47,075 nt of DNA from Candidatus Methanovirga procula (lineage in GTDB: Archaea; Methanobacteriota; Methanobacteria; Methanobacteriales; Methanobacteriaceae): the NCBI GenBank assembly GCA_031280375.1, contig JAITGU010000050.1, positions 1 through 47,075 on the forward strand, read 5' to 3'. Shown in pieces: positions 3,514-46,991 of the stretch (the stretch's first letter is position 1; each line of letters starts with the position of its first letter). Position numbers and translations under genes: made by a program. The notes under the pieces are model-generated. The model ran no database searches and was not told the DNA's origin. It saw nothing but the letters and a program-made list of their open reading frames with translations.

Positions 3514-3998
3514 TAGTTTTTGGAAAATGATTTTGATGAACCTTTTGTTTTTAACGAAGTGAAAAACTTAGGAGACGAAGTCTCCGTTTATTCTCAAGCG
3601 AAGCATGAGAATTTAGAAAAATCTCTGATTTTTTGTTATTTCGAACGAAGTGAAAAATTTAACGAAATTTTATAATTTCGTGTTTTTAAAAGTTTCTTCT
3701 AAATAGTAAAAAATTGAAGTTTTTTAAACTTATAAAAACTTTTGATGAAACTTTTGTTTTGAACGAAGTGAAAAACTTAGGAGACGGAGTCTCCGTTTCT
3801 AAAAGTTTCTTCTAAATAGTAAAAAATTGAAGTTTTTTAAACTTATAAAAACTTTTGATGAAACTTTTGTTTCGAATGAAATGAAAAACTTAGGAAAATC
3901 TCTGATTTTCCGTTTTCTAAAAGTTTCTTCTAAATAGTAAAAAATCTAAGATTTTGAAATTTATAAAAGTTTTGATGAGTTTTTTAAAAGGTTCTTAT
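3514..3998 (+). repeat. Hairpin-array element, locus A (one long unit plus tandem units of 113 and 117 bp and a partial fourth)
   Basis: Units start with TTTTGATGAA at 3531, 3740, 3853 and 3970, and the locus ends with AAAAGGTTCTTAT at 3986-3998. Hairpins seen: ggagac-gaa-gtctcc, attctcaagc-gaa-gcatgagaat, aaaaatc-tctg-attttt, aacgaaatt-ttat-aatttcgt, ggagac-gga-gtctcc and ggaaaatc-tctg-attttcc. Confidence 0.9.
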
Positions 3999-4041
3999 AA
4001 AACATAAAATATAATATCTAACAAAAATAATAATTGCTATT

Positions 4042-6165
4042 ATGAAAAAGAATATTTATCTTGGTAAAGAGAATATTTATCCATTCACAGCTATTGTAGG
4101 TCAAGAAAAGATTAAAAAAGCCTTAATACTAAATGCCATCAATCCTTCAATTGGTGGAGTATTGATTAAAGGAGATAGGGGAACAGGAAAAACAACAGCT
4201 GTTAGAGCATTAAGTAGTTTACTGCCAGAAATAGAAACTGTTGAAGGCTCACCATTCAATGTAGATAAAAATGAATACATTAATTTCCAATTGTACAAAT
4301 TCCATAACAAAACAAAGGAGGATGAAATTAAAATAGTTAAAAAACCTATGAATGTAGTTGAACTTCCACTTGGAGCTACTGAAGATAGAGTTATCGGCTC
4401 GATTAACATAGAAAAGGGACTGAAAGAAGGAGTAAAACAATTAGAGCCTGGAATTTTGGCTACTGCCCATAAAAATATACTCTACATTGATGAGATAAAT
4501 CTTTTAGATGATAACTTAGTGGATGTTCTATTGGATTCTGCTGCTTTTGGAATGAATACAGTTGAAAGAGAAGGAATATCAATTAAACATCCATCAAAAT
4601 TTATTTTAATTGGAACAATGAACCCAGAAGAAGGTGAACTTCGAAGACAACTTTCTGATAGAATAGGTTTAGAAATATTGGTTAGTGGAATAGAGAATAT
4701 TAAAGAAAAAATTACAATTATGAAGTATAGGCAAGAATTTGAGAAAGATCCTAAATCATTCAGAGAAAAATTCAAGGATAAAGAAATAAAGCTTAAAGAA
4801 AGAATAGAAAGTGCTAAAGATGGATTAGCTGAAGTTGAGATTGATGATAACTTAATTAGAATAATAGCTATAAACACTGATAATTTAGGATTAGAAGGGC
4901 ATAGAAAAGATATAGCTATTTTAAAAACTTCAAAGACAATAGCTGCATTTGAAGGAAGTAATACAGTGAATTATGAAAATGTGGTTGAGGCTTTTGAATT
5001 AGTTTTAGGTGAATATCCTGATTGTATGGATAGTTCTCAAAATGATGTCAATACTCCAAATAATGAAAATGATGGCACTGCTCAAAATAATGAAAGTAAT
5101 TATACTCAGAATAATAATGAAAAACAAGACACTGAGAAAAAAGAAGATAAAAATGACAATGAACAACAATCACAACAAAATACTAAAAATGAGGAAAACA
5201 ATAATGAAGAAGAAAATGAAAATTTATCAAATCAAGCACAAAGTGGAACTGATCTTAAAGAAAACGAAAATCAAGGTAGTGATTTAGAAATTAAAAGAGT
5301 TGAGAATCAAAGAAAAGTTGATGACTTTCCAATTGAAGAATTAGAAAAAGATATTAACAAAATTCTAATATTAAAAGGAAGAGAAAAAGAAAAAATTTAT
5401 GGTAATAGAGTAGAATCAAAGACAGAAAAAGGAAAATATGTTAAAACAAAGTTTTCAAAGGATTATAATGATATAGCTATTGATGGAACATTACGGGCAG
5501 CTGCAATTCATTCAAGAGATAAAATCTCAGTTAAAAAAGAAGATTTAAGAAGTAAAATTAGAAAACATAAATCAAGGGCAAGTATAGTTGTTGTAATGGA
5601 TTTAAGTGGCTCAATGATGAGTGATGAAAAAATAAATAAAATAAAGGGAATATTAAATAAAATTATTAAAAACATTAATAAACATAAGGACAAATTAACT
5701 GTCATTGGGTTTAAAGGTAATGAAAGTGAGATCATAATTCCAAACACAAAAAGACCAAGCTCTTTTTTAGACAAACTTGGAAAAATTAGTGTTGGTGGGA
5801 CAACACCAATGGCTAAAGGATTAAAAAAAGGATATGAGATTCTAAAAAAAGAAAAAAAATATGGGGAGTACATTCCTATGCTTATTTTACTCTCTGATGG
5901 GATGCCTAATGTTGGTATTAAAAACAGCGATTTAAAAAATATTACTGGAAGTCCAATAAAGGATGTTTTAGCTATTGGAAGACAGTTGGCTGATGATAAA
6001 ATATACATAATTGTTATAGATTTTGAAAAAAAGATCAAACAAGGTAAAAATGTTAATTTAGAGTTAGCTATTATTTCTAATGGCAAATACTATGATTTAG
6101 AAAATGTATGTGATTTTAGTGTAGCTATTGATAAAATATTAACTTATGAAAGGTCTATTTTATGA
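4042..6165 (+). CDS. Mg-chelatase-like ATPase, ChlI/ChlD (BchD)-type: AAA+ module, low-complexity linker and vWA domain
   Basis: N-terminus [38 protein letters not shown], Walker [14 protein letters not shown]-rich linker (about nt 5030-5290), and a C-terminal vWA with MIDAS motif [10 protein letters not shown]. Confidence 0.85.
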
Positions 6166-6190
6166 AAATAGCTATTTTTGTTTAATATTT

Positions 6191-6361
6191 ATAAGAACCT
6201 TTTAGAAACACGAAATTATAAAATTTCGTTAAATTTCTCACTTCGTTCGAAATAACAAAAAATCAGAGATTTTTCTAAATTCTCATGCTTCGCTTGAGAA
6301 TAAACGGAGACTTCGTCTCCTAAGTTTCTCATTTCATTCGAAACAAAAGGTTCATCAAAAC
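6191..6361 (-). repeat. Hairpin-array element, locus B (inverted copy of the first unit of locus A)
   Basis: The reverse complement aligns to 3531-3700 with 161 of 170 identical positions by my manual alignment, including a 90-nt perfect stretch. The same four hairpins occur in the same order. Confidence 0.92.
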
Positions 6362-6458
6362 TTATTTTTTAAAAATAATAAAATCCATTTTTAAAGAATT
6401 ATTTTAATATTTATAAATTCATTTTTGATTTTATTATTTAAATTAATGAATAATTAAT

Positions 6459-6600
6459 GTTTCGACCTTTAAGAAGCATAAATTTTTAGAAGTTGATTTT
6501 AAAAATGGTTTAAATATAATCACTGGAATCAATTCGACGGGCAAATCGACAATAACTCAAGGTTTAACCTATGCTTTTTTTGGCAAAAGCGATTATAAAC
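6459..6600 (+). pseudogene. Remnant of a P-loop NTPase N-terminus (SMC/RecF/Rad50/AAA_15-like)
   Basis: The frame reads KKHKFLEVDFKNGLNIITGINSTGKSTITQGLTYAFFGKS, with a Walker A in the position typical of these ATPases. It has no in-frame start codon, because the ATG at 6457 is in another frame that stops after 10 codons. The frame then runs antisense into argH. Confidence 0.5.
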
Positions 6601-8034
6601 TTAATGTTTGTTGTTTTGAATTTTCTTATCATATTCTTTTTTTAAAAATTTCTGCATATTCTTCGCAGATAATTCCACCATCTCAGGGGCAGGCCCTCCT
6701 ATAACATTCCTTGATTTAACATTTTGAACAGGATCCAAGGCTTTCTTTATTAAGTCATTAGGTAAAGATAATGATTTTCCTGTAAGCTTAATAGCTATTT
6801 TATCTACAAATTCAGAATCTATCTTGTTGAAATCAAGATCATCGTTGGAATTTACTTCATTTACTATTCGTCCAACGATTTGATGAGCTATTCTAAAAGG
6901 GGTTTTTTTTTCTTTAACCATTAAATCAGCCAAATCTGTTGCAGTTGCAAAATTTTTGTAAGCTAACTCCAATCCTCTTTCCTTTTTAAAGTTAATTGAT
7001 AAGGTCATTTTGGATGTTATACTTAAAATAGCTTCTGTATTTTCAATAACATTCCAAAGATGAGGATTTATCTCTTGTAAATCTCTATTATATGTGTATG
7101 GAATCCCTTTAAGTATCATTAAAATTGTCATAAGTTCTCCAGTTATAATGGATGATTTCCCACGGACTAATTCTGCAACATCAGGATTTTTTTTCTGTGG
7201 CATTATTGATGAGGTTGAGGAGAACTCATCAGATATTTCAATTAATCTGAATTCATAACTGCTCCACATAATTAGTTCTTCAGCTATTTTACATAGATTT
7301 GAAGATAAAATAGCTAAATCTGATACAACTTCAACTATGAAATCACGAGAACTAACACCGTCCATTGAATTCTCTAAGTAAGCATCAAATCCAAGAATCT
7401 TTGTAGTTAGTTCTCTGTTAATTGGAAATGTTGTTGTTGCTAATGCTCCTGAACCTAATGGATTTAAGTTCACTCGTTTATAACTGTCTTTAAGCCGCTC
7501 ATAATCTCTTTTTAGTGATTGGGCATAAGCCATTAGGTGATGACCAAAGGTTATTGTTTGTCCATGTTGAAGATGAGTGTATCCAATAGATATTATGTTT
7601 TTGTGTTCAATAGCTAATTCAACTAATCCTTCAATGAATTCAAGAATAGATATTTGAATTTCGTCTATTTTAACCCTTAAACTTAGTCTGAGGTCAGTTG
7701 CAACTTGGTCATTTCTTGATTTTGCTGTATGCATAAATCCAGCATCATCTCCAACTGATTTAATCACATATTTTTCAACTGCCATATGAATATCTTCATC
7801 AGCATGATTAAAATTTAGTGCATCATAACCTTCATCCATTAGTTTAAATAAAGCTTCAAGTATTTTATCGGCTATTTCTTCATCTACTATTTTTTCTTCT
7901 TTTAACATTAAAGTATGTGCAATATTACATTTAACATCTGATTCAAAAATATATTTATCAAATTCTACTGATGATGTAAATTCAGCGGCTTCTTCATCCA
8001 TTGCTTTCTTTAAACGACCATCTCTTATTTTCAA
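6601..8034 (-). CDS. argH: Argininosuccinate lyase
   Basis: 477 aa with the fumarate-lyase signature SSIMPQKKNPDVAELVRGK and GYTHLQHGQTITFGHH. Confidence 0.95.
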   Translation of the reverse strand: MKIRDGRLKKAMDEEAAEFTSSVEFDKYIFESDVKCNIAHTLMLKEEKIVDEEIADKILEALFKLMDEGYDALNFNHADEDIHMAVEKYVIKSVGDDAGFMHTAKSRNDQVATDLRLSLRVKIDEIQISILEFIEGLVELAIEHKNIISIGYTHLQHGQTITFGHHLMAYAQSLKRDYERLKDSYKRVNLNPLGSGALATTTFPINRELTTKILGFDAYLENSMDGVSSRDFIVEVVSDLAILSSNLCKIAEELIMWSSYEFRLIEISDEFSSTSSIMPQKKNPDVAELVRGKSSIITGELMTILMILKGIPYTYNRDLQEINPHLWNVIENTEAILSITSKMTLSINFKKERGLELAYKNFATATDLADLMVKEKKTPFRIAHQIVGRIVNEVNSNDDLDFNKIDSEFVDKIAIKLTGKSLSLPNDLIKKALDPVQNVKSRNVIGGPAPEMVELSAKNMQKFLKKEYDKKIQNNKH

Positions 8035-8584
8035 AAAAACACCTTGTTATATCTATTTATCTAAATTCAAAAATAGACAATGATTATATATGTCTTTTAA
8101 TATATTGTTATAGTATTGTTCATAGAGATTGATAGTACTTCTTTTAATATATTTAATTTATTATTGTATTAATTTTTTCATAGTAGATTATATTTTACTA
8201 TAAGATTATGAACCAGCATATATAATTTAAATATGACTTTTATAATATAATATAAATATTTTAAAAATTATAATTAATTATTATGAATAATAATTGATAT
8301 GTATAAATAGTTAATTTATGAATTAAATTATTTTGATTATATTTATGAATGATTTTTTTGATGAGTATAAAAAGTTATAAATAAATTTTTTTAATGAGTA
8401 ATAAAATATAAGTATATAGTTATTTTTTTTAATAAGTAAATTTTTTATCAATATTTTATTAAATTTTATATCTAAGATTTTATCTTTACAATACTATTTT
8501 TATATTGTTATTATTAGTTTATATTTATTGTTGTAATTTATATTGAAATAAAAAACAGATTTTAAATAAAAAATAGGTTTTAAA

Positions 8585-9265
8585 ATGAAGAATAATGTTT
8601 ATGAAATAGATTTATCTAAAATGACACCAAGAGAAGCAAATGAGTCCATTATAGGAAATGCTTCAAAATATGATAAAATAATTTTAAAAAATCCTCATGC
8701 AATGCACTATCTTATTGCAGGATTAGTAGAGGAAGTAGATATTGAAGTTGATGGATCAACAGGATATTTTATAGGAACCATGAATGATAAAGCGAATATA
8801 AAAGTCAATGGCAATGTTGGCTGGTTTGCTGGAGACAATATGACTGGAGGCAAACTTTTAATAGAAGGTTCTGCTGGTGATGGAGTAGGTCAAGGAATAT
8901 ATGGTGGAAAAATCATTGTAAGAAAAGATGCTGGTGCGAGAACTGGGGAGATAATGAAAAACGGCACTATAATTGTTGGAGGTAATTCAGGGTTTATGAC
9001 TGGAATATTTATGATGGGTGGTCGTATAGTTGTTCTTGGTGATTTAGGTAAAGACATTGGTGAATCTATTATAAGAGGAGTTATTTATGTTTTAGGTGAA
9101 GTTGAAAGTTTAGGGAAAAATGCAACTTTAGTGGATATTGATGATGAAAATAAGAAAGAACTTAAAAGTTTGTTAAGTAAGTATGATTTTAATTTAAATA
9201 GCTCTGATTATGATAGTTTTAGAAAAATAATTCCGAAAAGTAAAAGACCGTTTTATGGTAAATAG
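8585..9265 (+). CDS. Glutamate synthase GXGXG-repeat domain protein (GltB C-terminal domain / FwdC-like)
   Basis: Repeated G-x-G-x-G beta-helix motifs (GNVGWFAGDNMTGGKLLIEGSAGDGVGQGIYGGKIIV...). It is adjacent to, and on the same strand as, the FMN-domain gene. Confidence 0.85.
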   Translation: MKNNVYEIDLSKMTPREANESIIGNASKYDKIILKNPHAMHYLIAGLVEEVDIEVDGSTGYFIGTMNDKANIKVNGNVGWFAGDNMTGGKLLIEGSAGDGVGQGIYGGKIIVRKDAGARTGEIMKNGTIIVGGNSGFMTGIFMMGGRIVVLGDLGKDIGESIIRGVIYVLGEVESLGKNATLVDIDDENKKELKSLLSKYDFNLNSSDYDSFRKIIPKSKRPFYGK

Positions 9266-9285
9266 CTAAGATTGGAGGTTAATTA

Positions 9286-12007: not shown

Positions 12008-12200
12008 TTTATATTCACAATTTTTTTATATGCTATCTTTATCATTAGTTTATATTATTAATTTTATTAAAAGTAATATTTATATACTACAAAAAATAAT
12101 ATTATTTATTATAAAATAATATAAAAAGAGTCAATATTATTAATATTTATTTTTTACTCTATCTTTTTAGACAGTGCAAAGAACTCAATATTTTTTGGAG

Positions 12201-13090
12201 GTGTATAAACTGACTTTAAAAAATAAAGGTGTTGAAAATAAAGACATTAAATTAATGGATGATCGGATATTCAACTTATTTTTGGTAGAATAGATTCAAA
12301 AGAACTATTAAGAAGTTTTTCAGAGCGAATACTTGAGAGAAAAATCGGAATAAAAGACATCCTTAATGGTGAAGTAGTCTCAGAGGTTAAAAATAGAAAA
12401 AAAATTAGCTTAGATATTGTTGCCAAAACCACAGACAACACAATAATCCACATAGAAGCCCAAAACGCTTATGACAGAGGTCTTGAAAACCGAATAAAAT
12501 ATTATGCTGATAGAGAATGTGTAGTTCACCTGAAAAAAGGAGATAACTATCGTGATGCCCAAAAAATAATCTCAATAGTTCTACTCAACCATAAATTTTA
12601 TAAAGAAAAAGAAAAAATATATAAACATAACTACAAAATATTAAATACAGATGATTATTCAATTTACGATGACAATCCACTTGAGATTGTTATCTTTGAT
12701 AAGTTAAAGAAAGAACATTATGACTTAAATAAACCAATGGATCTTATTTTCATGTATTTGTTTGATTTATTAAGTCCTGAAGAACTTGAAAAAGCAATAA
12801 AAGAGGCTAAGTTAATAGAAAAGATAGAAAGGAGGAAGAATATGATTTTAAAGACTGAAGAAGAATTTCTTAAATTAGAATTAGAAAAAAGAGAAATGAT
12901 GGAAAAATACAGAATAGAAGATGCAGCAAAAGAAGCCTTAGAGAGAGGTAGAATAGAAGGTATTATTCAAACCTCTTTGAGATTGAAAGATAAGGGTTTT
13001 TCTTTAGAGGATATAAGTGATATAACTGGTTTATCATTTGAAATTAAGGAAACTAACCTTATAGTCAATGTTGCACATTTAATTTCTTAA
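12201..13090 (+). pseudogene. Rpn/YhgA-like PD-(D/E)XK nuclease (putative-transposase family), frameshifted near the N-terminus
   Basis: The N-terminal piece ...IKLMDDRIFNLF stops at 12291. The frame shifted by one continues FGRIDSKELLRSFSERIL...DIVAKTTDNTIIHIEAQN...GLSFE to 13090. The frames meet in a T5 run at 12279-12283. The first ATG of the long frame is only at 12737. Confidence 0.75.
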
Positions 13091-13704
13091 TCCATGCTGT
13101 TAACTTAATTTTTAAGTTCCATTAAGATGATGTTTAACATTAATCGGCTTTTACTATTTCACTGTTTTTAGATTTTATCACCATATTCTATTTTTTAATT
13201 CATCAATCCAAGGTATGTCCAAGTAAAACAACCAGCAATGGCTAAAATATTAAATAGTTTTTTTATTGTCTTATAAATTTTGCGATGAGTGTATTTTCTT
13301 TTTACTGACCATACTATTCATGCATTTAAAAATATTGAAGGTTTATTTTTTTTTTTTGCCTTGATTTACGGTATGTTTGTCTGCTAACAGGTTGAATGCC
13401 ATCATTTTTGAGCATATCTAATCTAATTCGGCACTTGTATTATACTTTTCCATGAAAAAAGCATGGAATAGATTATATCTTTGAGATTCATGTTTCTATT
13501 GTGTGTGAAGGATTTTAGAATTTATTCTGCTCATTTATAGGAATTCGTCTGAAATTATTAACTCAAAAAACTCTTTGAAGATGTTTATTATAATTCATAA
13601 TAAATGTAACTATCCATGTTTGTCTAATATAAAACATAATATAGATAATAAATAATGATAATGTACTATATAAATATTAAGTTAACAGCATTGTTATATG
13701 AACT

Positions 13705-13862
13705 TTTTTGATCAAACTTTTCTTACTTTTTAGATAAGTTGGGAACTTCAGTTTCTATTGATTTCGAAGGAAGTGAGAAATTTGGGAAACAAAGTTTCAA
13801 TTATTTCGAACGAAATGAGAAATGTAGAAAACAAAGTTTTCTTTGTTTTTCATTCTTAAAAA
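13705..13862 (+). repeat. Hairpin-array element, locus C (divergent ends)
   Basis: Contains ttttgatcaaactttt, then gggaacttcagtttc, then two modules: atttcgaaggaagtgagaaat plus ggaaac-aaa-gtttc, and atttcgaacgaaatgagaaat plus agaaaac-aaa-gttttct. Confidence 0.8.
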
Positions 13863-14086
13863 TGTTGTATAATAATTCTCTTAACTTATTGAGATATGAT
13901 GCTCATTAATTCACTTAATCAATCCATATAAAACTGAAATTCTCCATTCTTCGCAATATTTATTTATATGAATGTCCTCTATGTTTTCTCCGTTTATTTA
14001 CTTTATGGGATTATTATTTAGTATATATGGATTTGATTAGAAGATATATGAAACTAATGTTTTTGAAGATATGTTTCATTATAATT

Positions 14087-15075: not shown

Positions 15076-15209
15076 TTAAGAACTTCCTTCAAAATATGAA
15101 CATCACCTTTACTTAAAACTTTTAAGAGAATAATTGAAAATGAATAAGCAAATAGTGATATGGAATAGCAACAATTAAAAGCATTAACTTAAAAGTTTTA
15201 ATTTTTAAG

Positions 15210-15345
15210 TTAGAAAACTTTGATTTCGAGCAGAGAGAGAAATTTAGGGAATGAAATTCCCGTTGTTTTGAACAAAGTGAGAGACTTAGGACAGAGTATC
15301 CGTTAGTTCCAAACAAAGTTAGGAACTTAGAAAATGGAGTTTTCT
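15210..15345 (+). repeat. Hairpin-array element, locus D (5'-truncated, three to four modules)
   Basis: Modules: atttcgagcagagagagaaat plus gggaat-gaa-attccc, gttttgaacaaagtgagagac plus ggaca-gag-tatcc, gttcc-aaacaaagtta-ggaac, and agaaaa-tggag-ttttct. Confidence 0.8.
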
Positions 15346-15353
15346 TTATTTTC

Positions 15354-15465
15354 TTCAATTCAAAATTTTTTATTATTGAAAATTTATTTTTCAATTTAGA
15401 AGAATTAATTCTTCGTTTTTGAATTTAGAAAACGAAGTTTTTCTTTAATTCAAAATTTTTTATTT
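15354..15465 (+). repeat. Second hairpin module family, bounded by an 18-nt direct repeat aattcaaaattttttatt
   Basis: Contains ttgaaaa-tttat-ttttcaa, the 16-nt palindrome gaagaattaattcttc and agaaaac-gaa-gttttt. Positions 15362-15419 recur perfectly, inverted, at 37810-37867. Confidence 0.85.
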
Positions 15466-20056: not shown

Positions 20057-20629
20057 TCACTTTTTTGAAAAGAGTTTATTAAGTTTTTTTTTAGTGAATT
20101 TCAAAAGATAAAAATGAATTTCAGAAGATAACAATGAGTTTTAGGATGATTTTTTTTTGAATAATTTACAGTCCTTGGTATTAACAATAACTATTAATTA
20201 ATGAATTTTTCTATTGTTAAAAATTTATTTTTAACTTAGAAGAATTTATTCTCTGTTTAAAAATATTGATTGAAAATAATTTATTTCCTTATTAAGTAAT
20301 TTAAAATTAATTATATTAAAAAATATATTATTTAATTAAACAAAAATTCAAAATAAAATAGTATTATATTTATTTAAAAAGTCCATTACTTAAAAAAATT
20401 ATTCCAAGGGCTATAAATTATTTTTTATAATTTAAAATAAATTTTTAATAATATTAAATTTTAATATGCTAAAATTTTAAATCTCGAAATTTAAAATGAA
20501 TATATTTAATATGGGAGTTTATATACTATAAACTCTAAACATAAGTTTAGATATTGAATAAGTTTAAAATAATGAATCATAAGTTATATAAATAGTATAA
20601 TATAAATTGATATTTTGGATTAATAACTT

Positions 20630-23424: not shown

Positions 23425-23664
23425 TCTTATAAAATAATTAAATATTTGATTAATCCTTAAATGTACATTTGTTAATATATCATATAAATTAAGTATTTAT
23501 ATATCTTTTATCAGATATTTAATTAATTATAATTGTAAATATTATAAAACAACTAATATCATAAGTATTTAAAATTTTTAATTACTTTTAAAATTTCTTG
23601 ATTTAGAAATAAAATCTTTAATTTTGTAAATAATAAGGTATTTCTTAAAAACTAATTATTTTGA

Positions 23665-23880
23665 TAGTTTTTGGAAAATAACTTTTGATGAACCTTAACT
23701 TGTTAAGGTAAAGTTAGGGAACTCCAGTTCCCATTGATTTCGAACAAAGTGAGAAATTTAGGATACAAAGTATCCATTATTTCGAATTAAATGAGAAACT
23801 TAGGATACAAAGTATCCATTATTTCGAACAAAGTGAGAAACTTAGGGAATGAAATTTCCGTTTTTGAAAGGTTTTTCTAA
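23665..23880 (+). repeat. Hairpin-array element, locus E (best-preserved copy)
   Basis: Begins tagtttttggaaaataacTTTTGATGAACC. Then ccttaac-ttg-ttaagg and gggaac-tcca-gttccc. Then three modules (atttcgaacaaagtgagaaat plus ggatac-aaa-gtatcc, a second copy of that module, then plus gggaat-gaa-atttcc). Ends tttttgaaaggtttttct. Confidence 0.9.
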
Positions 23881-24612: not shown

Positions 24613-24736
24613 AATTAGATTTTTTTTTATTTCTTTTGATCAAAAAAGAGAATTTTCATCTTTTTTTATAAAATGAACTTCTTTAAAATAAGTTTTTTAT
24701 AAAGAATCAAATAATTCTTAAAAATCATCATTTTGT

Positions 24737-24866
24737 TAGCTTTTTGAAAAATTTTATGATGAACCTTTCGCAGCAAAATGAGAAACTTATGGAATTAACT
24801 TATCGTTGTTTCGAACAGAGCGAGAACTTAGGAACCAAAGGGTCTGTTTAAAATGATCTTCTAAAA
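24737..24866 (+). repeat. Hairpin-array element, locus F (short, degenerate)
   Basis: Reads tagctttttgaaaaattTTATGATGAACCTTTcgcagcaaaatgagaaac...gtttcgaacagagcgagaac plus ggaacc-aaa-gggtct...gtttaaaatgatcttctaaaac. Confidence 0.75.
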
Positions 24867-24982
24867 CTCCACAAAAGTTTACAACCTCAATATATCAATA
24901 AATTTATATAGGATAAAAACAAAAACTTTAATTGTTGTCTTATTTTACTTGAAATCTAATTAATAAATTTGTTATTATATGT

Positions 24983-25185: not shown

Positions 25186-25644
25186 ATGAAAGTAGCGAAG
25201 AAAATGATCGACTTAGGTATTAGAGTTGGTGATAATCAGAAGCTATACTGTGGAAACTTAAAAATTAGTATTACTGGGATTGCAAAAGCATGCGAAGTTG
25301 ATAGAAAAGCTGTTATGGCTACAATAAATTCTATTTTAAAAGATGAATATTTAACAATCATATTTAAAAATATTATTCCTGCTGGAACATTATTAAAAAA
25401 CATTGCTCAAAATTTAGGATTAGGAGTAATTGAAATCGAAACACAAAGAGAAAACAATGGAATCTTAGCAGAGATCAGTAAATTAACATCTGACAAAAAC
25501 TTAGCTATTCGTCAAGCTCATGCTAATGACACCGAAATGGAATCATTACCGATTTTAACTATAATAACTGAAACATCAGCACCAGATGACTTAATTAAAG
25601 AAATTTTAAAAATAGAAGGAGTTATGAAAGTTTCTATTTACTAA
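25186..25644 (+). CDS. ACT-domain putative regulator of amino-acid metabolism. The N-terminus probably extends upstream (see finding).
   Basis: 152 aa from the first ATG, with an ACT-like C-terminal half (GILAEISKLTSDKNLAIRQAHAN...ILKIEGVMKVSIY). The frame is open back to 25081, and AGGAGG lies at 25128-25133. Confidence 0.7.
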   Translation: MKVAKKMIDLGIRVGDNQKLYCGNLKISITGIAKACEVDRKAVMATINSILKDEYLTIIFKNIIPAGTLLKNIAQNLGLGVIEIETQRENNGILAEISKLTSDKNLAIRQAHANDTEMESLPILTIITETSAPDDLIKEILKIEGVMKVSIY

Positions 25645-25680
25645 AAAATAAAATTAATAAAACAAAAAACTAAAGTAAAA

Positions 25681-25788
25681 AGACTGTCTATCAATTAGTT
25701 TTCACATGAAAAAATAAGACAACACAACTCTTTAAAATTAAAAATAGAGTAATTTATCTTTTAAAATCTGTATTGTTAGACTGTCTCT
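25681..25788 (+). repeat. About 105-nt TIR-bearing repeat, copy R1 (3' of hypC)
   Basis: Ends agactgtctatcaat and attgttagactgtct are inverted repeats (13 of 15). The internal core is aaaaataagacaacacaactctttaaaattaaaaatagag. Confidence 0.8.
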
Positions 25789-25865
25789 AAAAAAAAGTTA
25801 AAAAACACCATCATATTAAACTATAAAAAAAGCAAGCTCATAATCATAACTGTAAAAAAAATTGT

Positions 25866-29797: not shown

Positions 29798-30098
29798 GAA
29801 ATCCCTAATAAAATTGGATATATTGATAAAATCATTATTAATAAAATTTACAAGATTAATAACATATTAATTTAATGACATACTAATAAAAAGATTATAT
29901 TCAAATAGAAGTTATATTAATTATTTCTTATTTTAATTATAAATAGACTAATATCCATTTTAAACATGAGTTCTTTTTTAAGATACAAATTCCTAAAATT
30001 AATAATTAAATCAATATAACTATTGTTATATTTTGTTATATTGGATATAAATATTTTGTTGAACCTTTTTGTTTTGATGAAAACAAAGAATACTTAAC

Positions 30099-37280: not shown

Positions 37281-37784
37281 ACTTATAACTTTCATTATTC
37301 CAAACAAATACAAACAGCAGAAATCATAAGAATAAATCATATTAACTATTAGTCCAAGACAAAATTTTCGACATTTTAATAATTTTTTACTTAAAGAACT
37401 TGCTGCATGACTATTAATTAATATTTAAAATATGAATTAAAAAATTTTGAGTATATATTAAATTGCGAATTTATTTTTTTCATTTTCAACTACTCCAATT
37501 AACTTTTTGTAACTTATAGTATTTTTGAAAAAGTTCTTAAATTTTGAAAATAAATTAAATCATGAATAATAGTTATTTTAAATTATATCTGGTTATAATT
37601 AATTATTATTAAAACTTAAATTATTATAATTATTTATTAATTTAATAAACTACTTAAAATTGTTAAATTAAAAATATAAATATTTTTTTATAATTTATTT
37701 ATTAAAAACTTTATCAAATTGACTATAATATGATAAAAAAATCATTAATTTAATCTTAAAATATAAATTAATTATTAATATTAC

Positions 37785-37870
37785 AAAATCGAAGATTTTT
37801 AATTCTTATAAAACGAAGAATTAATTCTTCTAAATTGAAAAATAAATTTTCAATAATAAAAAATTTTATA
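37785..37870 (-). repeat. Inverted copy of the second hairpin module family
   Basis: Positions 37810-37867 are the perfect reverse complement of 15362-15419 (58 nt). The adjacent hairpin is aaaatc-gaa-gatttt. Confidence 0.9.
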
Positions 37871-38297
37871 AATAATAACTTTATTTTATTAAATTAATTT
37901 TAATAAGGGTATTTATAAAATATTCTCGTATTTGTTTACTCTACAACAAGGTTTGTTTTCCACCATTACCATAGTGTCTAATTTGACTTGCCACAAAAAA
38001 CGAGTTAGAATTTTACTTCAAAATCGTATTGTGTATAAACTTTACTTAGATTAGAAATACTTGTGGAACGACCTGTACTATCTGAAGAGAGTGCAAATTA
38101 TTATAAAATCTTTAAATCTTGATTAAATATGATATTACCCTCTCTTTGTTGAATAAAATCTACAGTATGAATGAACCTTTTCCAAGTAAATAAATTATAA
38201 AATTAGATTTGATATATATTGATATGCTTTATATTTAAATATTTATAATAGTAGACATAAAAAGTGTTTTAAAAAAAATTATTATCTAAATTGTATA

Positions 38298-38483: not shown

Positions 38484-38526
38484 TTTACATCCCTCCCACT
38501 TTTTTCAATTTTATTAATTGTTTTAT

Positions 38527-39867: not shown

Positions 39868-40099
39868 ATTATCCTAAAAATTTAATTTATAATATTTTAC
39901 CTAACTTATTAACATGATATATTTTATTAAATTCTTTTCATTGAATTTTTAAAAGAAAAAACTTTAATATCTATTTAAATTAAAATTTAAGTAATTTTAA
40001 AAATAATTTTTTAATAAAAATTTTTATAGTGTTTTGCAAAATTAATTATTTTTGGCTTAAATTACTAAAAATTACCAAAAATTTTTAATTTTTGTAATT

Positions 40100-40120
40100 A
40101 TGAAAATCCAAAGGATTTTC
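40100..40120. repeat. Solitary hairpin built like the array hairpins
   Basis: tgaaaatcc-aaa-ggattttca: a 9-bp perfect stem and an AAA triloop closed by C-G. Confidence 0.6.
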
Positions 40121-40471
40121 AGTAATCTTTGATTTTGTAAATATTAATGTTTATTTTATATTTAAGATTACTCCTTAATATTTTAGGGTTAATCTATCTA
40201 AGTTATAATTTAATTTTTTTACCTAATAAACTTTTATAAATTGGTATTGAGCAAATTCAAATAAAATAATATCCAAGTATATCCTTAATTAAATAAAAAG
40301 TCCATAATAAGAGAACTATAATAAGAAAATTTTACGGATAAAACTTTAAAAAATCTTTTAGAAGAAGAAAAAATAAAGTATAAATAAAAAATTAATAAAA
40401 AATTTTTGAATAAAAAAAATTCATTCCTTTTTTTTTACTATTTCATTGTTTAGAATTTATTACCAAATAAT

Positions 40472-41467: not shown

Positions 41468-43020
41468 CTTCGAAATAATTTCACCTCATATATTTTATAT
41501 TTAATCCAATTGAGCCAGATTATAATCTCAAATATTCTCAATTGAACTACTTCAACAAAACTGAAAATTAAATACAGATCAATAATAAAATTATTATACT
41601 GGTATATAAGTTTATTATGTTCATTACTATATCAATAAGAACTTATTGATTGAATTCAGATATATCGACTTGTACAAGCATTTACAAATTCAATGAAATC
41701 AACAAATCAATTTATATGAATATGTAATCAATGCACCAATTTGTGATTGATGTTTATTTTAATAAATCAACTTATAGACATATACAATCACCATATACAC
41801 AATGAATTCAAAAATTCAGTTTTGCTTTCACTTTCATATTAAGCAATTAATCTTATATAAATGTTTCTAATAACTAATTAAAATTAATTAATTTTTTTCG
41901 TTTTGAACTAATATGCACAGCAATAAACTACTTAAAAGTATTAAACTATATTAAATTAAACTTAAAAATTAATTAACAGATTAAAACACTCTTTAATGAA
42001 CTTTAAAAATATTTATATCATTTATTTAAAAACAAAATAGATATTGAACCTAATAATTTAAATAAAATAGAATTAAAACCCAAATAAAAAAAATTTGATG
42101 AATATATCTTCATTATATAAAAAATAAGCTGTTTTAATACTTATTGAAAGAAAAATAAAGATATTTAAAGAAAAAATAATCTGAGTTTAAAATTGAATTT
42201 TTAATGCAAAAATCCAATTAGAATTAATCAAAATATTCGACAACATCAATTACCCTAACATATAAAGCAATAATCTATCCTTTTTCATTTTAAATCTTCA
42301 TCTAAAAATCTTTTGATCAATATAGAGAACTTTAAAAATTATATTATGTTTAAAATAAGATTAAAAAATATATTTAAGACCTTAAAGATGATTTTTTATT
42401 TAAATTTAATTTTAAACCATGTATTAGAATTATTTATATCTAAATAAGAAAATAAATAAGAATAATTAATTTTAGAATAAAATTGTGACATTATAGAATT
42501 AATAAAGATATTTACATCAATTTCGTAAATACTCACTTTATAGGTCTGTTATTAAAAAAATAGCTGCCAGAATAATGCAATATTTTGCCTAAAATTCTTA
42601 ACATATATCAATATCATTAAATATTGTATATTATAATAACATTATCATAATATTACAATATTTTATATCTTTATTATTTTTTTGTATTAAAAAATATTTC
42701 TAAATCATTAAAATTTCAATAAAAAAGAAACTAAATCATAAAAAAATCAATAAATTTTCAAATTTACATACTTAACTTATAAATAAACTTAATAAACAAA
42801 TAACAAAAAATGTAGATAAATTAAAAGAAGTAGATTAAATAAAAGAAGTAGATAAATAAAAGAAAAAAATTAATGTATAAAATAAAAACAAGCCCAATAA
42901 ACTAATTACTAAGCATTAAAAAAGATATAAGCGAGAAAAAATCAAAAATAATGCAAGTCAGAAGTATGTCAAATAGAATTAAAGAAAAAGTTTTAATTGA
43001 AGTTAAAAAAGAAGTAAAAT

Positions 43021-43749
43021 TTACTTAAGTATTGAATTAAAAAAATCCTTAGTGAATTTAGGTAGGTTCTCATCTACAAAAACACATTTATTTTGTCTTG
43101 AAGTATTATTAATTTGAGATGAATTTATTCTACAAGTTTTATAAATACCAATACCTCTTCTTTGCCAAGCAGGTAATTTCCCTAAATTAATCCCTTTTTT
43201 TCTAAATAAGTACTCATGAATTTCTGGTGACTTGAAGCCATTAAGTTTTTTTTTAAGTTCATCGTTTTCATACTTTTCTTTTAAAGCCCAGTAACCATAG
43301 ATATTTATACAGTTTCTATAAGCTTCATCTTGTCTCCATTTAAAATAATTAAAAATTTCATTATCAGAGACTGGAATAGTTCGTGAATCAAAAGCTATTG
43401 GAAATAAATCATGGTCATCATCATATCTATCTGAGTTTTTTATACTTAGAGTCAATGAACTTGAAGCTAAACTTGAAAAAACAGAATTCAATTTCTCTAT
43501 TCTTCCAGAAAATGGAATATAATTAAAAAGAATACTAACTTCATCTGAAAATGTGTATATGAATAATGGTGAAAATTCTTTAAAAATATCTAAACCTGCT
43601 TTAGCCATTAAACTTGTAAATTCATAGTCAAATGGTGTTTTAAGATTTAATTTTTTACTTAAACTATGGAAACTTCTGCCATCTAATCTTAGAATTAGGT
43701 TTGAACTTAATGGAACTTTAATTTCAGAATAAATTTCGTGTTCTTTCAT
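43021..43749 (-). CDS. thg1: tRNA(His) guanylyltransferase-like protein (Thg1/TLP)
   Basis: 242 aa with LRLDGRSFHSLSK and YTFSDEVSILF motifs. Confidence 0.87.
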   Translation of the reverse strand: MKEHEIYSEIKVPLSSNLILRLDGRSFHSLSKKLNLKTPFDYEFTSLMAKAGLDIFKEFSPLFIYTFSDEVSILFNYIPFSGRIEKLNSVFSSLASSSLTLSIKNSDRYDDDHDLFPIAFDSRTIPVSDNEIFNYFKWRQDEAYRNCINIYGYWALKEKYENDELKKKLNGFKSPEIHEYLFRKKGINLGKLPAWQRRGIGIYKTCRINSSQINNTSRQNKCVFVDENLPKFTKDFFNSILK

Positions 43750-43777
43750 AAAATCTTCCAGGACCTCTAAATAAAAA

Positions 43778-44539
43778 TTATGTTCCTAAGTTAAATGGTT
43801 CAATTAATCCGTTTAATAGCTGAATTGCAGAGTAAGCAGCAAGAATACTTGTTTTAGGATTGGATTCACAGGGTAAATTTTCAGTTTCAGTTATAACCCT
43901 TCCAAAATCACCTTCAACAAGTACTTGATGAATGTTTCTATCGACCTTAGGATCAACGAGGATTTTAACATCAATATCTAAATTAGAAGCAATGCTTAAT
44001 GTAGCTGCAACATTGATATTCAATGGAAACCTTTTAACAGCTTCACTCGCTTTACCAACGAATAAAATTTCTTCTTCAATTATATTCATACCCAGTGAAC
44101 TTGGTGACTTTCGTGTAGTTAATAAAACCTTTTTTATTTCTCCTACAGAACCAGCTTTTATTGCATCCAAGCCAGCTATTGCACCACTTGGAATATGAAT
44201 TTTTGAACCTGTTTTTTTTGAAATATTATTGATTTCATTCCAAAAATCATTATCCAACAATGCTCCAACACTCATTATAATAACATCTTTACCCTTTTTA
44301 AGAACCTGAGGAATAAGCTCCTTAACAGATGATTGAGATGCTGATTCTAAAACCAAGTCCACATTATCAACCATATCTTGAAAATCTAAAACAACAGTTC
44401 CATTAGATACTCGTGCTAAGTTTTCAGCTTTCTCAATATCTCTATCATAAAAATATTTAATCAATATTTCTTCTTTATTCTCAATTTTACGAATAAGAAC
44501 ATTAGCTATTGCTCCACATCCAAGTATGCCTACTATCAT
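43778..44539 (-). CDS. nadX: L-aspartate dehydrogenase
   Basis: Rossmann N-terminus MIVGILGCGAIA (internal Met preferred over the track start at 44593), plus IHIPSGAIAGLDAIKA. Confidence 0.87.
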   Translation of the reverse strand: MIVGILGCGAIANVLIRKIENKEEILIKYFYDRDIEKAENLARVSNGTVVLDFQDMVDNVDLVLESASQSSVKELIPQVLKKGKDVIIMSVGALLDNDFWNEINNISKKTGSKIHIPSGAIAGLDAIKAGSVGEIKKVLLTTRKSPSSLGMNIIEEEILFVGKASEAVKRFPLNINVAATLSIASNLDIDVKILVDPKVDRNIHQVLVEGDFGRVITETENLPCESNPKTSILAAYSAIQLLNGLIEPFNLGT

Positions 44540-44743
44540 TATAATCACTAAATTGAAGAGGAGTTTATAAATTAAAAAAAAAGAGGTTAACAAAAAAATT
44601 ATAGTCTATAAAATTATAATTTATTAGCTCTTAAAAAGTTTATACTACAATAATATAGTCATGTGAAATAAAAATAATATAATAGTTAATCTTAAAAATT
44701 AATAGCTAATCCCATTAAATAGTAAATTAACTAAGTACTGTCC

Positions 44744-45100
44744 TTATAAATCATTATTCAATGTTTTATTAATTTGAGGATTAGGTTCTGGAGATGTAGC
44801 TGTTAAATTTCTTGGATCTATCAACATTATATCTCCAATAGCTTTAACTTTATCATAATCTATGTCAAATATCTTATCACTATATGATTTAACATGATTT
44901 TCATCAGGGACAAGCTGGAAATTTGTTTTTATCATGTCCATTAAACCAACATCTTTTTTTTCCCCAATGTCAAAGGTTCTTACTTTAAGTTTTGAAATTA
45001 TTCCAAGTTTTATGTTAAGAACAACATCCACAACTTTTCCTATGTACAGTCCTTCAATTGTGTATATATCTAAGTTGTAAAGATTTGAAACTTCCACCAT
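44744..45100 (-). CDS. PRC-barrel domain protein
   Basis: 118 aa. The N-terminal pattern LDIYTIEGLYIGKVVDVVLNIKLGIISKLKV is typical of archaeal PRC-barrel proteins. Confidence 0.7.
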   Translation of the reverse strand: MVEVSNLYNLDIYTIEGLYIGKVVDVVLNIKLGIISKLKVRTFDIGEKKDVGLMDMIKTNFQLVPDENHVKSYSDKIFDIDYDKVKAIGDIMLIDPRNLTATSPEPNPQINKTLNNDL

Positions 45101-45205
45101 ATTCTCACCAATTCCAATGAATTATCTATCAATTAATAATTATATTAGATTTATTCATATAAATACTTTTCTATCGTTATACTCATGTAACTGAAAAAAG
45201 ATTTT

Positions 45206-46066
45206 TTAAAATTTGTACCTCCCTAAAAGAATATCCTCTTTCCTATATGGTTTTAAAATAGCTTCAATATAATCTTCTTTTATTTCATAAGTGTTGAATG
45301 AATTAGGGCAAGACCCTCTTAATTTAAAAGAAGAGAAAGAGCCAGCAGTGGCAAAAAGAGTATTTTCAACTTTCCATAAATAAGGAACATGTTTATGACC
45401 TGAAAGAACCATATTAACATCTAAATCTGTTAATGATTTTAAAATATCTCCAGCATCAAATAATATATTACGTTCTCTTCCTGTTTTAGGAATAGGTAAA
45501 ACATGATGATGAATAGCTACAATAGAAAAAGTAGAGTTTATATAAGAATCTGTTAAAATCTCTTCCATCCATAATTGTTGAGGACGACCAACACTTCCAT
45601 CACTGATATCTGGTTCTGAACTATCTAAACCAATTAAAGTAATATTACTAACATCAACCAAACATTTGGAGATACGATCATTTTTAGACCATTTCTTTTT
45701 ACCATTGTCTTTTAACATGCATTTTTCTTTTAAAGAATCATCATACTGTAATTTAATATTATCTTTATCATTAGAATTTAAAGTTTGAGCCCAACTACGT
45801 TCACCAATAAGTTTTTGAAAAGTTTCATAACCTAAATTACGAGCGTCATGGTTTCCAGGAATAGAAAAAAACATTGATTTAAAAAATTTTACATACTCAA
45901 TAGCTTTCACATACTCAGCATGATATCCACGATTTGTTAAATCGCCAGTGAAAATTATAAAATCAGGATCTAAATCATTGACCGTGTCAACACTATTAAA
46001 AAAGACATCTTCATTGAAATCACCTTCTCCAATGTGGAAATCAGAAATATGTACTATAAATGTCAT
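45206..46066 (-). CDS. Calcineurin-like metallophosphoesterase
   Basis: Motifs HISDFHIG, GDLTNRG, GNHD, IHHH and GHKH occur in canonical order. Confidence 0.85.
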   Translation of the reverse strand: MTFIVHISDFHIGEGDFNEDVFFNSVDTVNDLDPDFIIFTGDLTNRGYHAEYVKAIEYVKFFKSMFFSIPGNHDARNLGYETFQKLIGERSWAQTLNSNDKDNIKLQYDDSLKEKCMLKDNGKKKWSKNDRISKCLVDVSNITLIGLDSSEPDISDGSVGRPQQLWMEEILTDSYINSTFSIVAIHHHVLPIPKTGRERNILFDAGDILKSLTDLDVNMVLSGHKHVPYLWKVENTLFATAGSFSSFKLRGSCPNSFNTYEIKEDYIEAILKPYRKEDILLGRYKF

Positions 46067-46080
46067 TTTAATCGTGGATT

Positions 46081-46431
46081 TTACTGATTTAACTTTAGAA
46101 TAGCTTCTGCTAAATCGCCTTTAGTAGCTATTAAAGCTTTTTCAGCTTCTTCTTTAGAAACTTGACCTTGACTTGCCACCATTTCTATATCTTCATCAGG
46201 AATTATTAGTTCTTCCTCAAGCTGAATTTCAATAGATGTGCCAGTCACTTGATAAGTTTCCTGACCCATTACTTTCATTAAACTAACTTCTGCATTGGGA
46301 ATGATTAATTCTCTATCTTCAAGTTTAATTATGACTTCTTTAACTCCAGAAATATTTTCCATTCCCATTCCCATCTTTTTCATTTGTCTTTCCATTTGCT
46401 TCATTTGTTTTGGATTCATACCAGGTATCAT
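46081..46431 (-). CDS. nac: Nascent polypeptide-associated complex protein (archaeal NAC with UBA tail)
   Basis: 116 aa with an MNPKQMKQMERQMKKMGM N-terminus, a NAC beta-barrel region, and a C-terminal UBA-like EEAEKALIATKGDLAEAILKL. Confidence 0.9.
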   Translation of the reverse strand: MIPGMNPKQMKQMERQMKKMGMGMENISGVKEVIIKLEDRELIIPNAEVSLMKVMGQETYQVTGTSIEIQLEEELIIPDEDIEMVASQGQVSKEEAEKALIATKGDLAEAILKLNQ

Positions 46432-46751
46432 ACAATCACTACTTACTTATTGATATTAAACATAAATTATTTATTAAATTACATTCATCTATTAAATATA
46501 TTCATTCTTAATCATTAATTAAATTTATTATATAATTTTTAAGGTGATATTTAATAAATTAAATATAATAAATTAATATTTAAGATATTTAATTATTTGA
46601 TATTTAATAAATAACAACAATTGTTTATAATTTAAATTATATAATTACAAATAATATTTATTATACTATTATCTATAAGTTTATTTATCCATTAAATTCA
46701 AAATTTATTATTGCAATTTATTTTAAATGTATTTGAATATTTTTACCTTAA

Positions 46752-46991
46752 ATAAGAACCTTTTAAAAATGGGAATTTCATTCCCTAAATTTCTCGCTCT
46801 GCTCAAAATAAACTGAGACTTTGTCTCCTAAGTTTTTCACGACCTTCGAAACAAATGGGAAATCAGAGATTTTCCTAAGTTCTCACGACCTTCGAAACAA
46901 CGGAAACTGAAGTTCCCTAACTTACCTAAAGGTAAGAAAGTTTAAGAAAATCAACGATTTTCTAACTTAACAAGTTAAGGTTCATCAAAAC
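46752..46991 (-). repeat. Hairpin-array element, locus G (longest repertoire)
   Basis: The reverse complement reads TTTTGATGAACC. Next come ccttaac-ttg-ttaag, agaaaatc-gttg-attttct, cttacc-ttta-ggtaag and an imperfect gggaac-ttca-gtttcc. Then three modules (gtttcgaaggtcgtgagaac plus ggaaaatc-tctg-atttcc, gtttcgaaggtcgtgaaaaac plus ggagac-aaa-gtctc, attttgagcagagcgagaaat plus gggaat-gaa-attccc). It ends TTTTTAAAAGGTTCTTAT. Confidence 0.9.

Follow-up and report, generated by a model that had tools for sequence, protein, structure and literature searches.

Intergenic hairpin-array elements in Candidatus Methanovirga, a probable family of non-autonomous mobile DNA

Results

The stretch of DNA investigated here, referred to as the window, comprises 47,075 nucleotides of Candidatus Methanovirga procula (GenBank assembly GCA_031280375.1, contig JAITGU010000050.1, positions 1 to 47,075, forward strand). 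It has a G+C content of 27% and a chromosomal housekeeping gene content of the Methanobacteriales type, including a pseudomurein-binding repeat protein, 4-HFC-P synthase, a proteasome ATPase and IMP dehydrogenase. Between the genes, at seven loci denoted A to G, lie hairpin-array elements, each a composite of defined ends and a variable number of small hairpin modules, and these elements are the subject of this report. Methanovirga species inhabit the gut flagellates of lower termites (PMC13135261). A relative that is grouped with M. procula, 'Methanobrevibacter' sp. CfCl-M3 ('Ca. Methanobrevibacter cononymphae'), displays 98% identity to the window for the DUF356 protein and 97% for the Mg-chelatase-like protein, and was exploited for comparison of orthologous sites. 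Additionally, a public Logan contig (run SRR14710902) terminates within element E; it shows no difference from the corresponding part of the window and hence gives no information on polymorphism.

The elements were originally predicted from the letters of the window, as seven or more intergenic loci with shared units. To assess this assignment, we generated a covariance model of the ~39-nt double-hairpin module from 26 distinct fixed-length modules. With filters off, the model recovers 19 matches at E<1e-3 in the window, all inside loci A-G and on the predicted strands, and nothing comparable elsewhere in the whole window. Congruent with this result, a fuzzy search for the 21-nt hairpin (at most 6 mismatches) yielded 17 matches, all within the same loci, and a degenerate 25-mer matched 10 times as compared to 0.00 expected from shuffles. 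The seven loci are hence borne out by direct reading as well as by the model. None of the 32 arrays of the window and the related loci (labelled L plus a number below) lies within an open reading frame (ORF) of at least 110 amino acids, in agreement with the claim that all copies are intergenic, and the density amounts to about one element per 5-7 kb. On the other hand, a further 5'-end fragment proposed at 30055-30090 was not confirmed: a 5' core with one mismatch is present, but no module is detected by the covariance model. The sequence at this position is TTTGTTGAACCTT followed by the palindrome TTTGTTTTgatgAAAACAAA, without a 3' end, and may represent a solo remnant or a chance match.

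The units range from 53 to 262 bp and are bordered by a putative, imperfect terminal inverted repeat, with rAwyCTTTAAAAA... at the 5' end and ...TTTTwAAAAGGTTC at the 3' end (Table 1). The element end sequence is GAACCTTTTAAAAA. A conserved leader of 29-46 nt separates the 5' terminus from the core, which contains an internal copy of the end sequence (TTTTGATGAACCTTTT; also GATGAACCTTTT), whose pairing to the 3' end completes the predicted fold. The complementarity of GAACCTTTT and AAAAGGTTC, already noted in the original prediction, is thus real and has this very role. The loci were correctly placed, but their limits were drawn too narrowly, as the unit begins 29-46 nt further upstream and includes the leader; similarly, the proposed 3' motif holds up to ...AAAAGGTTC, whereas its last four bases (TTAT) are part of the duplicated target described below. 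The architecture regarded as common to all copies is shared in part: the 5' core TTTTGATGAACC is found at A, B, E, F and G and a variant, TTTTGATCAAAC, at C, while D lacks TTTTGATGAACC and has another 5' end. Locus A does contain the expected units, however as four tandem units (two with one module, one without any) rather than as a single element, and the end of the element at locus F runs into the terminal repeat of a second element type. Between the ends, units carry from zero to five or more modules, and the existence of module-less units makes modules an optional part of the unit. The terminal inverted repeats match best in element G, with GATTCTTTAAAAATGG against GAACCTTTTAAAAATGG agreeing at 14/16 positions with one indel when read by eye; the other copies reach about 8-11 of 13-15 positions, likewise by eye.

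We then turned to orthologous sites, a comparison for presence or absence and for target duplications that had been suggested with the original prediction. When the CfCl-M3 contig with the chelatase gene is aligned to the window using BLAST, 98.3% identity extends to position 6194 and starts again from 6403, the two aligned parts sharing 14 nt of CfCl-M3. Reconstructing the empty site directly bears out the indel: CfCl-M3 reads ...tatttttgTTTAATATTTATAAattcattttt... and the window ...tatttttgTTTAATATTTATAA[208 bp]TTTAATATTTATAAattcattttt..., and removal of 6195-6416 (208 bp plus one 14-mer) from the window leaves a sequence that mismatches CfCl-M3 at 2 of 149 nt. Element B is an insertion bounded by a perfect 14-bp target duplication, TTATAAATATTAAA, which is present as a single copy in CfCl-M3. 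The AT-rich 14-mer consensus of the target, TTMTAAATAKTAAA, has six exact matches in the window, and all six flank elements. The two flanks of a copy agree at 13/14 positions for the CfCl-M3 unit at site A (L026), at 12/14 in L008 and at 9-10/14 for G, E, A1 and A4. At locus A, four units are arranged head-to-tail with one exact 14-mer between neighbors; CfCl-M3 has two units only at this site, both module-less. Moreover, the top strand of the element terminates with a 3' C in most copies examined, and the bottom strand likewise in the majority.

The module itself measures ~42 nt and is composed of a 21-nt hairpin (hairpin 1), the linker TTA, a variable hairpin (hairpin 2) and the linker GTT. 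Hairpin 1, 5'-GUUUC-GA-AC-GAA-GU-GA-GAAAC, has a 5-bp stem topped by a tandem G·A/A·G, on which two Watson-Crick pairs close a triloop, and the predicted minimum-energy fold is identical to the proposed module structure. Across 52 modules, substitutions are seen on both sides of the stem: pair 1-21 is G-C in 27 and A-T in 14, pair 4-18 T-A in 47 and C-G in 4, pair 5-17 C-G in 38 and T-A in 6, and pair 9-13 C-G in 30 and T-A in 13. The loop of hairpin 1 is GAA in 20 and AAA in 17 of these modules, and the TTAGG linker occurs in 39/52. Hairpin 2, with a stem of 5-9 bp and a loop of 3-4 nt, exists in 43 distinct versions among the 52 modules, and comparison with shuffles bears out the earlier observation that these palindromes vary in sequence yet stay self-complementary. 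A statistical test of covariation had also been called for; compensatory changes are far above the shuffled controls. In the 26-module alignment, 97% of the cells are paired and both-side changes number 41 versus 11.5 in shuffles (0/500 shuffles reach the observed value), and in 66 distinct, model-aligned modules, 95.2% are paired with 116 versus 32 both-side changes (again 0/500). In the latter set, 10/13 pairs include a compensatory change, and all slid controls collapse.

The pairing is furthermore asymmetric between the strands. G·T/T·G combinations are seen 43 times as compared to 15 for A·C/C·A (p=3e-4), and the tandem GA/GA is maintained in 57/61 modules, which together indicate that one strand folds. 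This is the strand assigned in the original prediction, since the opposite strand turns the G·A pairs into C·T mismatches. Element B folds far better than shuffles on both strands as RNA (z = -3.9 and -6.0), and its element strand as DNA reaches z = -6.0.

The canonical hairpin on which the original description relied is accompanied by others, with at least eight hairpin types in total. The same TTA(G)/GTT linkers join GTTGTC-GAA-GACAAC, ATTCTCAaGC-GAA-GCaTGAGAAT, CTTACC-TTT-AGGTAAG, CCTTAAC-TTG-TTAAGG and AT-rich hairpins in the same arrays, and elements that differ in their ends have modules in common.

Several known structures were considered for the module and rejected. A Shine-Dalgarno-like AGGAG in hairpin 2 is found in a subset of the variants only. 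A C/D-box small RNA, hinted at by a TGATGA core, has no D box at the right distance, a 3' partner that is not GA and no Rfam support. The tandem G·A of kink-turns (K-turns) is present in hairpin 1, probably in sheared geometry; a K-turn or K-loop as L7Ae site was dismissed given that there is no 3-nt bulge and that positions 8-14 (AU/GC) and 9-13 (CG/UA) covary as pairs. Analogously, an array of short palindromic repeats in clustered, regularly interspaced order (CRISPR) is not congruent with a repeat of only 21 nt (24-37 nt in CRISPR), 'spacers' that are a few recurring palindromes and not unique sequences, and no cas genes in the window. In an Rfam search of the window only tRNA-Ile passes the gathering threshold, and the element regions give weak matches (E 0.7-9).

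Arrays at orthologous sites differ primarily in their modules. Site E contains three canonical modules in the window and one in CfCl-M3, the differences being two 42-nt blocks and a 10-nt deletion between flanks that are ~97% identical. A species at 84% protein identity retains the leader and both ends at this site with no canonical module, just CTTACC.. and GGAACC hairpins, and a species at 78% has no element. At locus A, several modules in the window compare to 0 in CfCl-M3. As the site comparisons show differences in 42-nt steps, arrays change by whole modules, in a manner resembling slippage or unequal exchange. At site G, a contig of Ca. Methanovirga australis aligns with 92.6% identity as far as the 3' edge of the element, whereas the interior contains other modules and another 5' end; at site F, the modules of the window and M. 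australis differ, and CfCl-M3 has the adjoining second element type and interrupted synteny; and upstream of RibD, the synteny with M. australis ends at the element end. Thus, sites stay occupied over long periods, and the elements mark rearrangement breakpoints.

To delineate the distribution of the family, the exact module pattern was searched in 185,579 species genomes, with the window's own genome seemingly outside the collection. A single genome was recovered, the metagenome-assembled genome of Ca. M. australis, with 18 contigs. Protein-guided retrieval revealed the family also in CfCl-M3 and a third Methanovirga species, and the related loci contain 52 modules in 170 kb as detected by the covariance model. 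For the most distant Methanovirga species, represented by two loci, the model finds no module; this species has no hairpin elements at A, B and E (L025 3500-3780 and 1380-1480; L029 1-130); the intergenic sites of L025 and L029 instead hold other AT-rich tandem repeats with units of about 20-50 nt. Viral contigs gave 0 matches to the module pattern, and a metagenome collection 14 isolated chance matches, none with the second hairpin. An 18-nt pattern of 3' end plus target was discarded as too unspecific, with 55 chance matches in viral contigs. The family is specific to the genus Methanovirga, found only in its genomes. We found no paper describing these repeats, and the hairpin-array family is previously undescribed. 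Regarding orientation, 19/27 arrays are co-directed with the downstream gene, a weak bias that falls to 16 versus 8 and below significance when each orthologous set is counted once.

As originally predicted, the window holds no intact transposase, only a frameshifted PDDEXK_2 'putative transposase' pseudogene at 12171-13090 (+). This PD-(D/E)XK 'nuclease family transposase' (PF12784, Rpn-like; E=1e-20) is located 600 bp upstream of element C, the 250 nt of non-coding DNA upstream of it are repeated in L004 and L007, and another copy is found at L099 6169. No parent insertion sequence (IS) with the same ends was detected in the window or the related loci, nor any casposase, PolB or solo Cas1 in the window or about 220 kb of related loci. 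Among the CfCl-M3 annotation entries listed there are a TnpB pseudogene, an ISH3 pseudogene and Rpn-like pseudogenes, however no casposase, PolB or Y1 enzyme, and the Cas1 genes are CRISPR-linked only. In CfCl-M3, L099 2386-4258 is an IS1182-like IS (DUF772, DDE_Tnp_1 and DDE_Tnp_1_6) with inverted ends around TTGCACAATTA, and a short derivative with IS1182-like ends appears to be nested in a hairpin element at about 1990-2200 of L008.

Table 1. Units of the hairpin-array family in the window, with their target sequences and flanks
Feature	Position	Strand	Remarks
Degenerate 14-nt target motif ATGACAATAGTAAA, 5' flank of array A	3471-3484	+	10/14 match to the 14-mer 3' of A1
Unit A1	3485-3696	+	Leader (46 nt) and core TTTTGATGAACCTTTT; hairpins: five, of which two are canonical hairpin 1; 3' end GTTTTTAAAAGTTTC
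Exact 14-mer TTCTAAATAGTAAA	3697-3710	+	Sole copy between A1 and A2
Unit A2	3711-3809	+	29-nt leader, core, one double-hairpin module, 3' end; absent in CfCl-M3
Exact 14-mer TTCTAAATAGTAAA	3810-3823	+	A2/A3 junction
Unit A3	3824-3927	+	Leader, core, one module, 3' end; absent in CfCl-M3
Exact 14-mer TTCTAAATAGTAAA	3928-3941	+	A3/A4 junction
Unit A4	3942-3994	+	Minimal: leader, TTTTGATGAG core and TTTTTTAAAAGGTTC, no module; conserved in CfCl-M3
3' flank 14-mer of A, TTATAAAACATAAA	3995-4008	+	34 nt upstream of the Mg-chelatase-like gene start (4042)
Target-site duplication, 3' side of B	6181-6194	-	TTATAAATATTAAA on the element strand
Element B	6195-6402	-	Complete, 208 bp; 42-nt leader, core, five hairpins, GTTTCTAAAAGGTTC; absent at the CfCl-M3 orthologous site
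Target-site duplication, 5' side of B	6403-6416	-	Same sequence as 6181-6194
ATATAAATATTAAG	13668-13681	+	Directly 5' of element C
Element C	13682-13870	+	Variant core TTTTGATCAAAC, cttac..gtaag-type and gggaac hairpins, two modules; atypical 3' end, boundary approximate
Element D	15183-15460	+	5' end CTTAAAAGTTTTAATTTTTAAG, GATGAACC core missing; three canonical modules followed by AT-rich hairpin modules; approximate boundaries
5' flank 14-mer of E, TTGTAAATAATAAG	23624-23637	+	
Element E	23638-23874	+	Leader (45 nt) and core; hairpins of the types ccttaac..gttaagg and gggaac; modules: three; 3' end GTTTTTGAAAGGTTT
3' flank 14-mer of E, TTCTAATAAATAAA	23875-23888	+	
Element F	24712-24858	+	Leader (42 nt) and core TTATGATGAACC; modules: one degenerate, one canonical; 3' end GTTTAAAATGATC
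Terminal repeat of the second element type, GAGGTTGTAAACTTTTGTGGAG	24867-24891	-	Adjoins F
3' flank 14-mer of G, TTATTTAAGGTAAA	46742-46755	-	
Element G	46756-47017	-	Leader (42 nt) and core; non-canonical hairpins: three; modules: three to four; 3' end ATTTTTAAAAGGTTC
5' flank of G, exact 14-mer TTCTAAATAGTAAA	47018-47031	-	

The second element type is characterized by inverted repeats of about 22-40 nt, GAGGTTGTAAATTTTTGTGGAG (TTTTTCA..CATG), with the same hairpin modules inside. Besides the copy that adjoins element F, it is found at L013 7133-7555, L014 3862-4150, L015 1699, L016 2544-2569, L002 7873-7915 and L020 4745-4990. The extra second-type element of CfCl-M3 at site F has its repeat oriented opposite to that of the window, at the synteny break. 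At L014 3796-3870, an hsdM-like frame (..GEFYTPRAVTDFMAQM) reads directly into the second-type inverted repeat, and at L016 2380-2495 a module is fused to an IS630-like transposase remnant (LPQYSPKFNPIEQVW). An AT-rich hairpin-module set, caaaattttttattattgaaaatttatttttcaattt / agaagaattaattcttc / agaaaacgaagtttttct, is located at 15360-15460 (+) of the window and inverted at 37770-37880 (-), the latter being absent from the original prediction, and also occurs in L007, L014 and L015.

Several more dispersed repeat families populate the intergenic DNA of the window genome. The intergenic segments 37452-37923, 20206-20414, 3324-3474 and 25643-25805 of the window show 70-86% identity to unlinked M. 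australis loci. In CfCl-M3, a 3.1-kb stretch from the chelatase-like gene to argininosuccinate lyase (L026 7628-10758), with short broken ORFs only, is missing from the window.

Discussion

We consider it probable, at roughly 0.75, that the hairpin arrays constitute a lineage-specific family of non-autonomous, target-specific mobile DNA, with ends akin to those of miniature transposable elements with inverted repeats (MITEs) and a modular build akin to that of BOX elements. A MITE or mosaic mobile element was among the original suggestions, and it agrees with the insertion polymorphism and 14-bp duplication, the putative, imperfect terminal inverted repeats, the non-coding nature, the dispersed copies and the variation of module number among relatives. 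In the proposed mechanism, an enzyme would make cuts staggered by 14 bp at the recognized target TTMTAAATAKTAAA, so that the target is duplicated. As each insertion duplicates the preferred 14-bp target, the target is regenerated on both sides, which explains the tandem arrays; re-use of the regenerated target would then lead to head-to-tail arrays as in locus A. The internal array would act like a minisatellite, with ~42-nt modules gained or lost whole by slippage or unequal exchange. As the pairing is kept on one strand, the hairpins probably act as folded single strands, and the folded form may be single-stranded DNA in movement or replication, or read-through RNA. The integrase or transposase is likely supplied in trans, from outside the window.

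A number of points weigh against mobility of this kind. Neither an autonomous copy nor a partner enzyme was found in the window and the related loci, and the IS1182-like IS, the only intact multi-copy IS seen in CfCl-M3, was rejected as partner, its ends TTGCACAATTA being unrelated to those of the hairpin elements. There is only one clean pair of occupied and empty sites, for which a precise deletion between 14-bp direct repeats in CfCl-M3 is also conceivable. Taken alone, terminal inverted repeats this short and imperfect (about 8-14 of 15-17 positions) are weak evidence. Moreover, the 14-mer is so alike at many sites that the element may bring it along as a recombination core, instead of its being the outcome of a staggered cut. 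The persistence at the same sites across species implies that most copies are old, and they may now be immobile. Finally, the modules were picked by similarity or by a strand-specific model, and both the paired fraction and the strand asymmetry are therefore somewhat inflated.

The alternative that survives best, while still unlikely, is that the arrays are primarily RNA, a structured RNA array having been among the original suggestions. The chain of hairpins, transcribed from the TATA-like 14-mer or by read-through, would bind a protein via the tandem G·A, or stabilize, terminate or insulate transcripts, with mobility being secondary. Such a role is in line with the compensatory pairing, with the G·U wobble on one strand only, and with the invariant tandem G·A and CUUAGG linker; furthermore, the same intergenic site is kept across species, and BOX and REP elements act on transcripts (PMC3049150). 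The 19/27 arrays oriented like the downstream gene initially point in the same direction, however this bias loses significance without orthologous duplicates. Orthologous sites, moreover, are free to differ in module number, from 0 to 5, and no Rfam family matches, with the C/D-box and K-turn families included. A K-turn's 3-nt bulge is missing from the hairpin, and the Watson-Crick covariation at 8-14 and 9-13 argues against a K-loop. Lastly, the triloops, mostly GAA or AAA closed by C-G, are of DNA type: C-GAA-G and C-AAA-G triloops, like a tandem G·A in the context Y-GA-R, typify DNA mini-hairpins of very high stability, while the loops favored in stable RNA hairpins are GNRA or UNCG tetraloops.

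A less probable alternative concerns the identity of the mobilizing enzyme. The elements could be casposon-derived and non-autonomous, moved by a Cas1-family integrase that recognizes a 14-bp target, cuts 14 bp apart and exploits the 3' terminal C as nucleophile, with single-stranded hairpin ends being tolerated or preferred. Casposons are known for 14-bp duplications that are conserved at different loci, for tandem copies sharing one duplication, for a 3'-end C and for a preference for single-stranded DNA (PMC6977970, PMC4779613, PMC9939771). The hairpin elements correspond in each of these respects of integration mode, with a duplicated 14-bp target of conserved sequence, head-to-tail arrays with one duplication copy between units, a 3' C on the top strand in most copies examined and on the bottom strand in the majority of these, and hairpin-rich, potentially single-stranded ends, and the likeness is limited to integration mode (PMC6977970, PMC4779613). 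On the other hand, casposons span many kb and encode a casposase and PolB, with those of Methanosarcina targeting tRNA-Leu 3' ends or particular intergenic sites. The casposase, PolB and solo Cas1 that this scenario demands are missing from the window, the about 220 kb of related loci and the CfCl-M3 entries listed, the bottom-strand 3' end of element B is T rather than C, and we found no paper on casposon-derived miniature elements. The length of the duplication is by itself not diagnostic, and some DDE families also produce long target duplications. Should the scenario nevertheless apply, the elements would be the first miniature non-autonomous casposon-type derivatives, short hairpin-rich DNAs that a Cas1-family enzyme places at the conserved 14-bp target; re-use of the duplicated target would yield repeat/insert/repeat arrays, naturally intermediate between casposon integration and a CRISPR-like array, a proposal we regard as slightly more doubtful still.

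Even less probable is a system of the type of repetitive extragenic palindromes (REPs) and interspersed mosaic elements of bacteria (BIMEs), in which single-stranded DNA hairpins are spread by a domesticated HUH Y1 enzyme (a REP-associated tyrosine transposase, RAYT, or IS200-type TnpA). The original prediction had pointed to this resemblance, and there are indeed dispersed intergenic hairpin mosaics that persist in the lineage and vary in composition at orthologous sites, strand-specific folding, common DNA-type triloops and a conserved, tetranucleotide-like linker TTAG 3' of hairpin 1. The likeness was not upheld, as the modules of an array are co-oriented where the REPs of BIMEs alternate, the linkers TTA(G) and GTT include no GTAG or CGTC tag, and the elements, being AT-rich and having GAA triloops, contrast with the G+C-rich stems of REPs. 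They also show a 14-bp target duplication, which Y1 enzymes are not known to make. The only related gene among the CfCl-M3 annotation entries listed is the TnpB pseudogene. In Archaea, only IS200-type TnpA has been reported and RAYTs have not been seen (PMC6006769).

Decaying duplicated spacer DNA or independent minisatellites in AT-rich intergenic DNA, neither functional nor mobile, would be compatible with the slippage-like steps in module number and with a host genome of 27% G+C that has many other tandem repeats besides the hairpin elements, but is hardly credible considering that ends, leader and modules are shared among unlinked loci and by no fewer than four species, that the insertion at B is clean with its 14-bp duplication, and that compensatory changes far exceed the shuffled controls.

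Returning to non-autonomous mobile DNA, the closest counterpart in architecture is the BOX element of pneumococci and Streptococcus suis, boxA-(boxB)n-boxC, a non-coding intergenic composite with fixed end modules and variable internal tandem modules (PMC3049150). Also in BOX, the internal modules fold independently while the end-to-end pairing is left undisturbed, the internal copy number differs between strains, and in S. suis different end modules (boxE/boxF) surround the same internal module (PMC3049150). The likeness is one of architecture only: the elements described here reside in an archaeal host, are unrelated in composition, have a double-hairpin module in which a tandem G·A is invariant, comprise eight or more hairpin types, and duplicate a conserved 14-bp target, whereas no clear evidence came from the flanks of BOX insertions (PMC3049150). 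With MITEs, the family shares a small size, an AT-rich, non-coding and highly base-paired sequence, putative inverted ends, a target duplication, and dispersed copies that are polymorphic between close relatives. It differs from MITEs in the short imperfect inverted repeats, in the long (14 bp) and sequence-specific duplication, in that no parent IS with matching ends was found in the window or the related loci, and in an interior that is an expandable modular hairpin array and not the remnant of a deleted IS. The double-hairpin elements and GC clusters of fungal mitochondria may offer a further parallel, as short mobile two-hairpin units in AT-rich intergenic DNA with structure conserved above sequence; these belong to organelle genomes and are not known to have defined end modules or a 14-bp target duplication.

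Small mosaic repeats of the BOX and BIME type are known from bacteria, and we found no report of such repeats for Methanobacteriota. The anatomy of the present family is well defined, with a specific duplicated 14-bp target, tandem re-insertion and gain or loss of whole modules, and its structural signature is unusually clear, in that both hairpins covary, the tandem G·A is invariant and the two strands differ in pairing. The elements are located at synteny breakpoints and are likely to break up metagenome assemblies; one public contig ends within element E. Were a Cas1-like enzyme responsible for their integration, the family would bear directly on the origin of repeat arrays from transposon integration.

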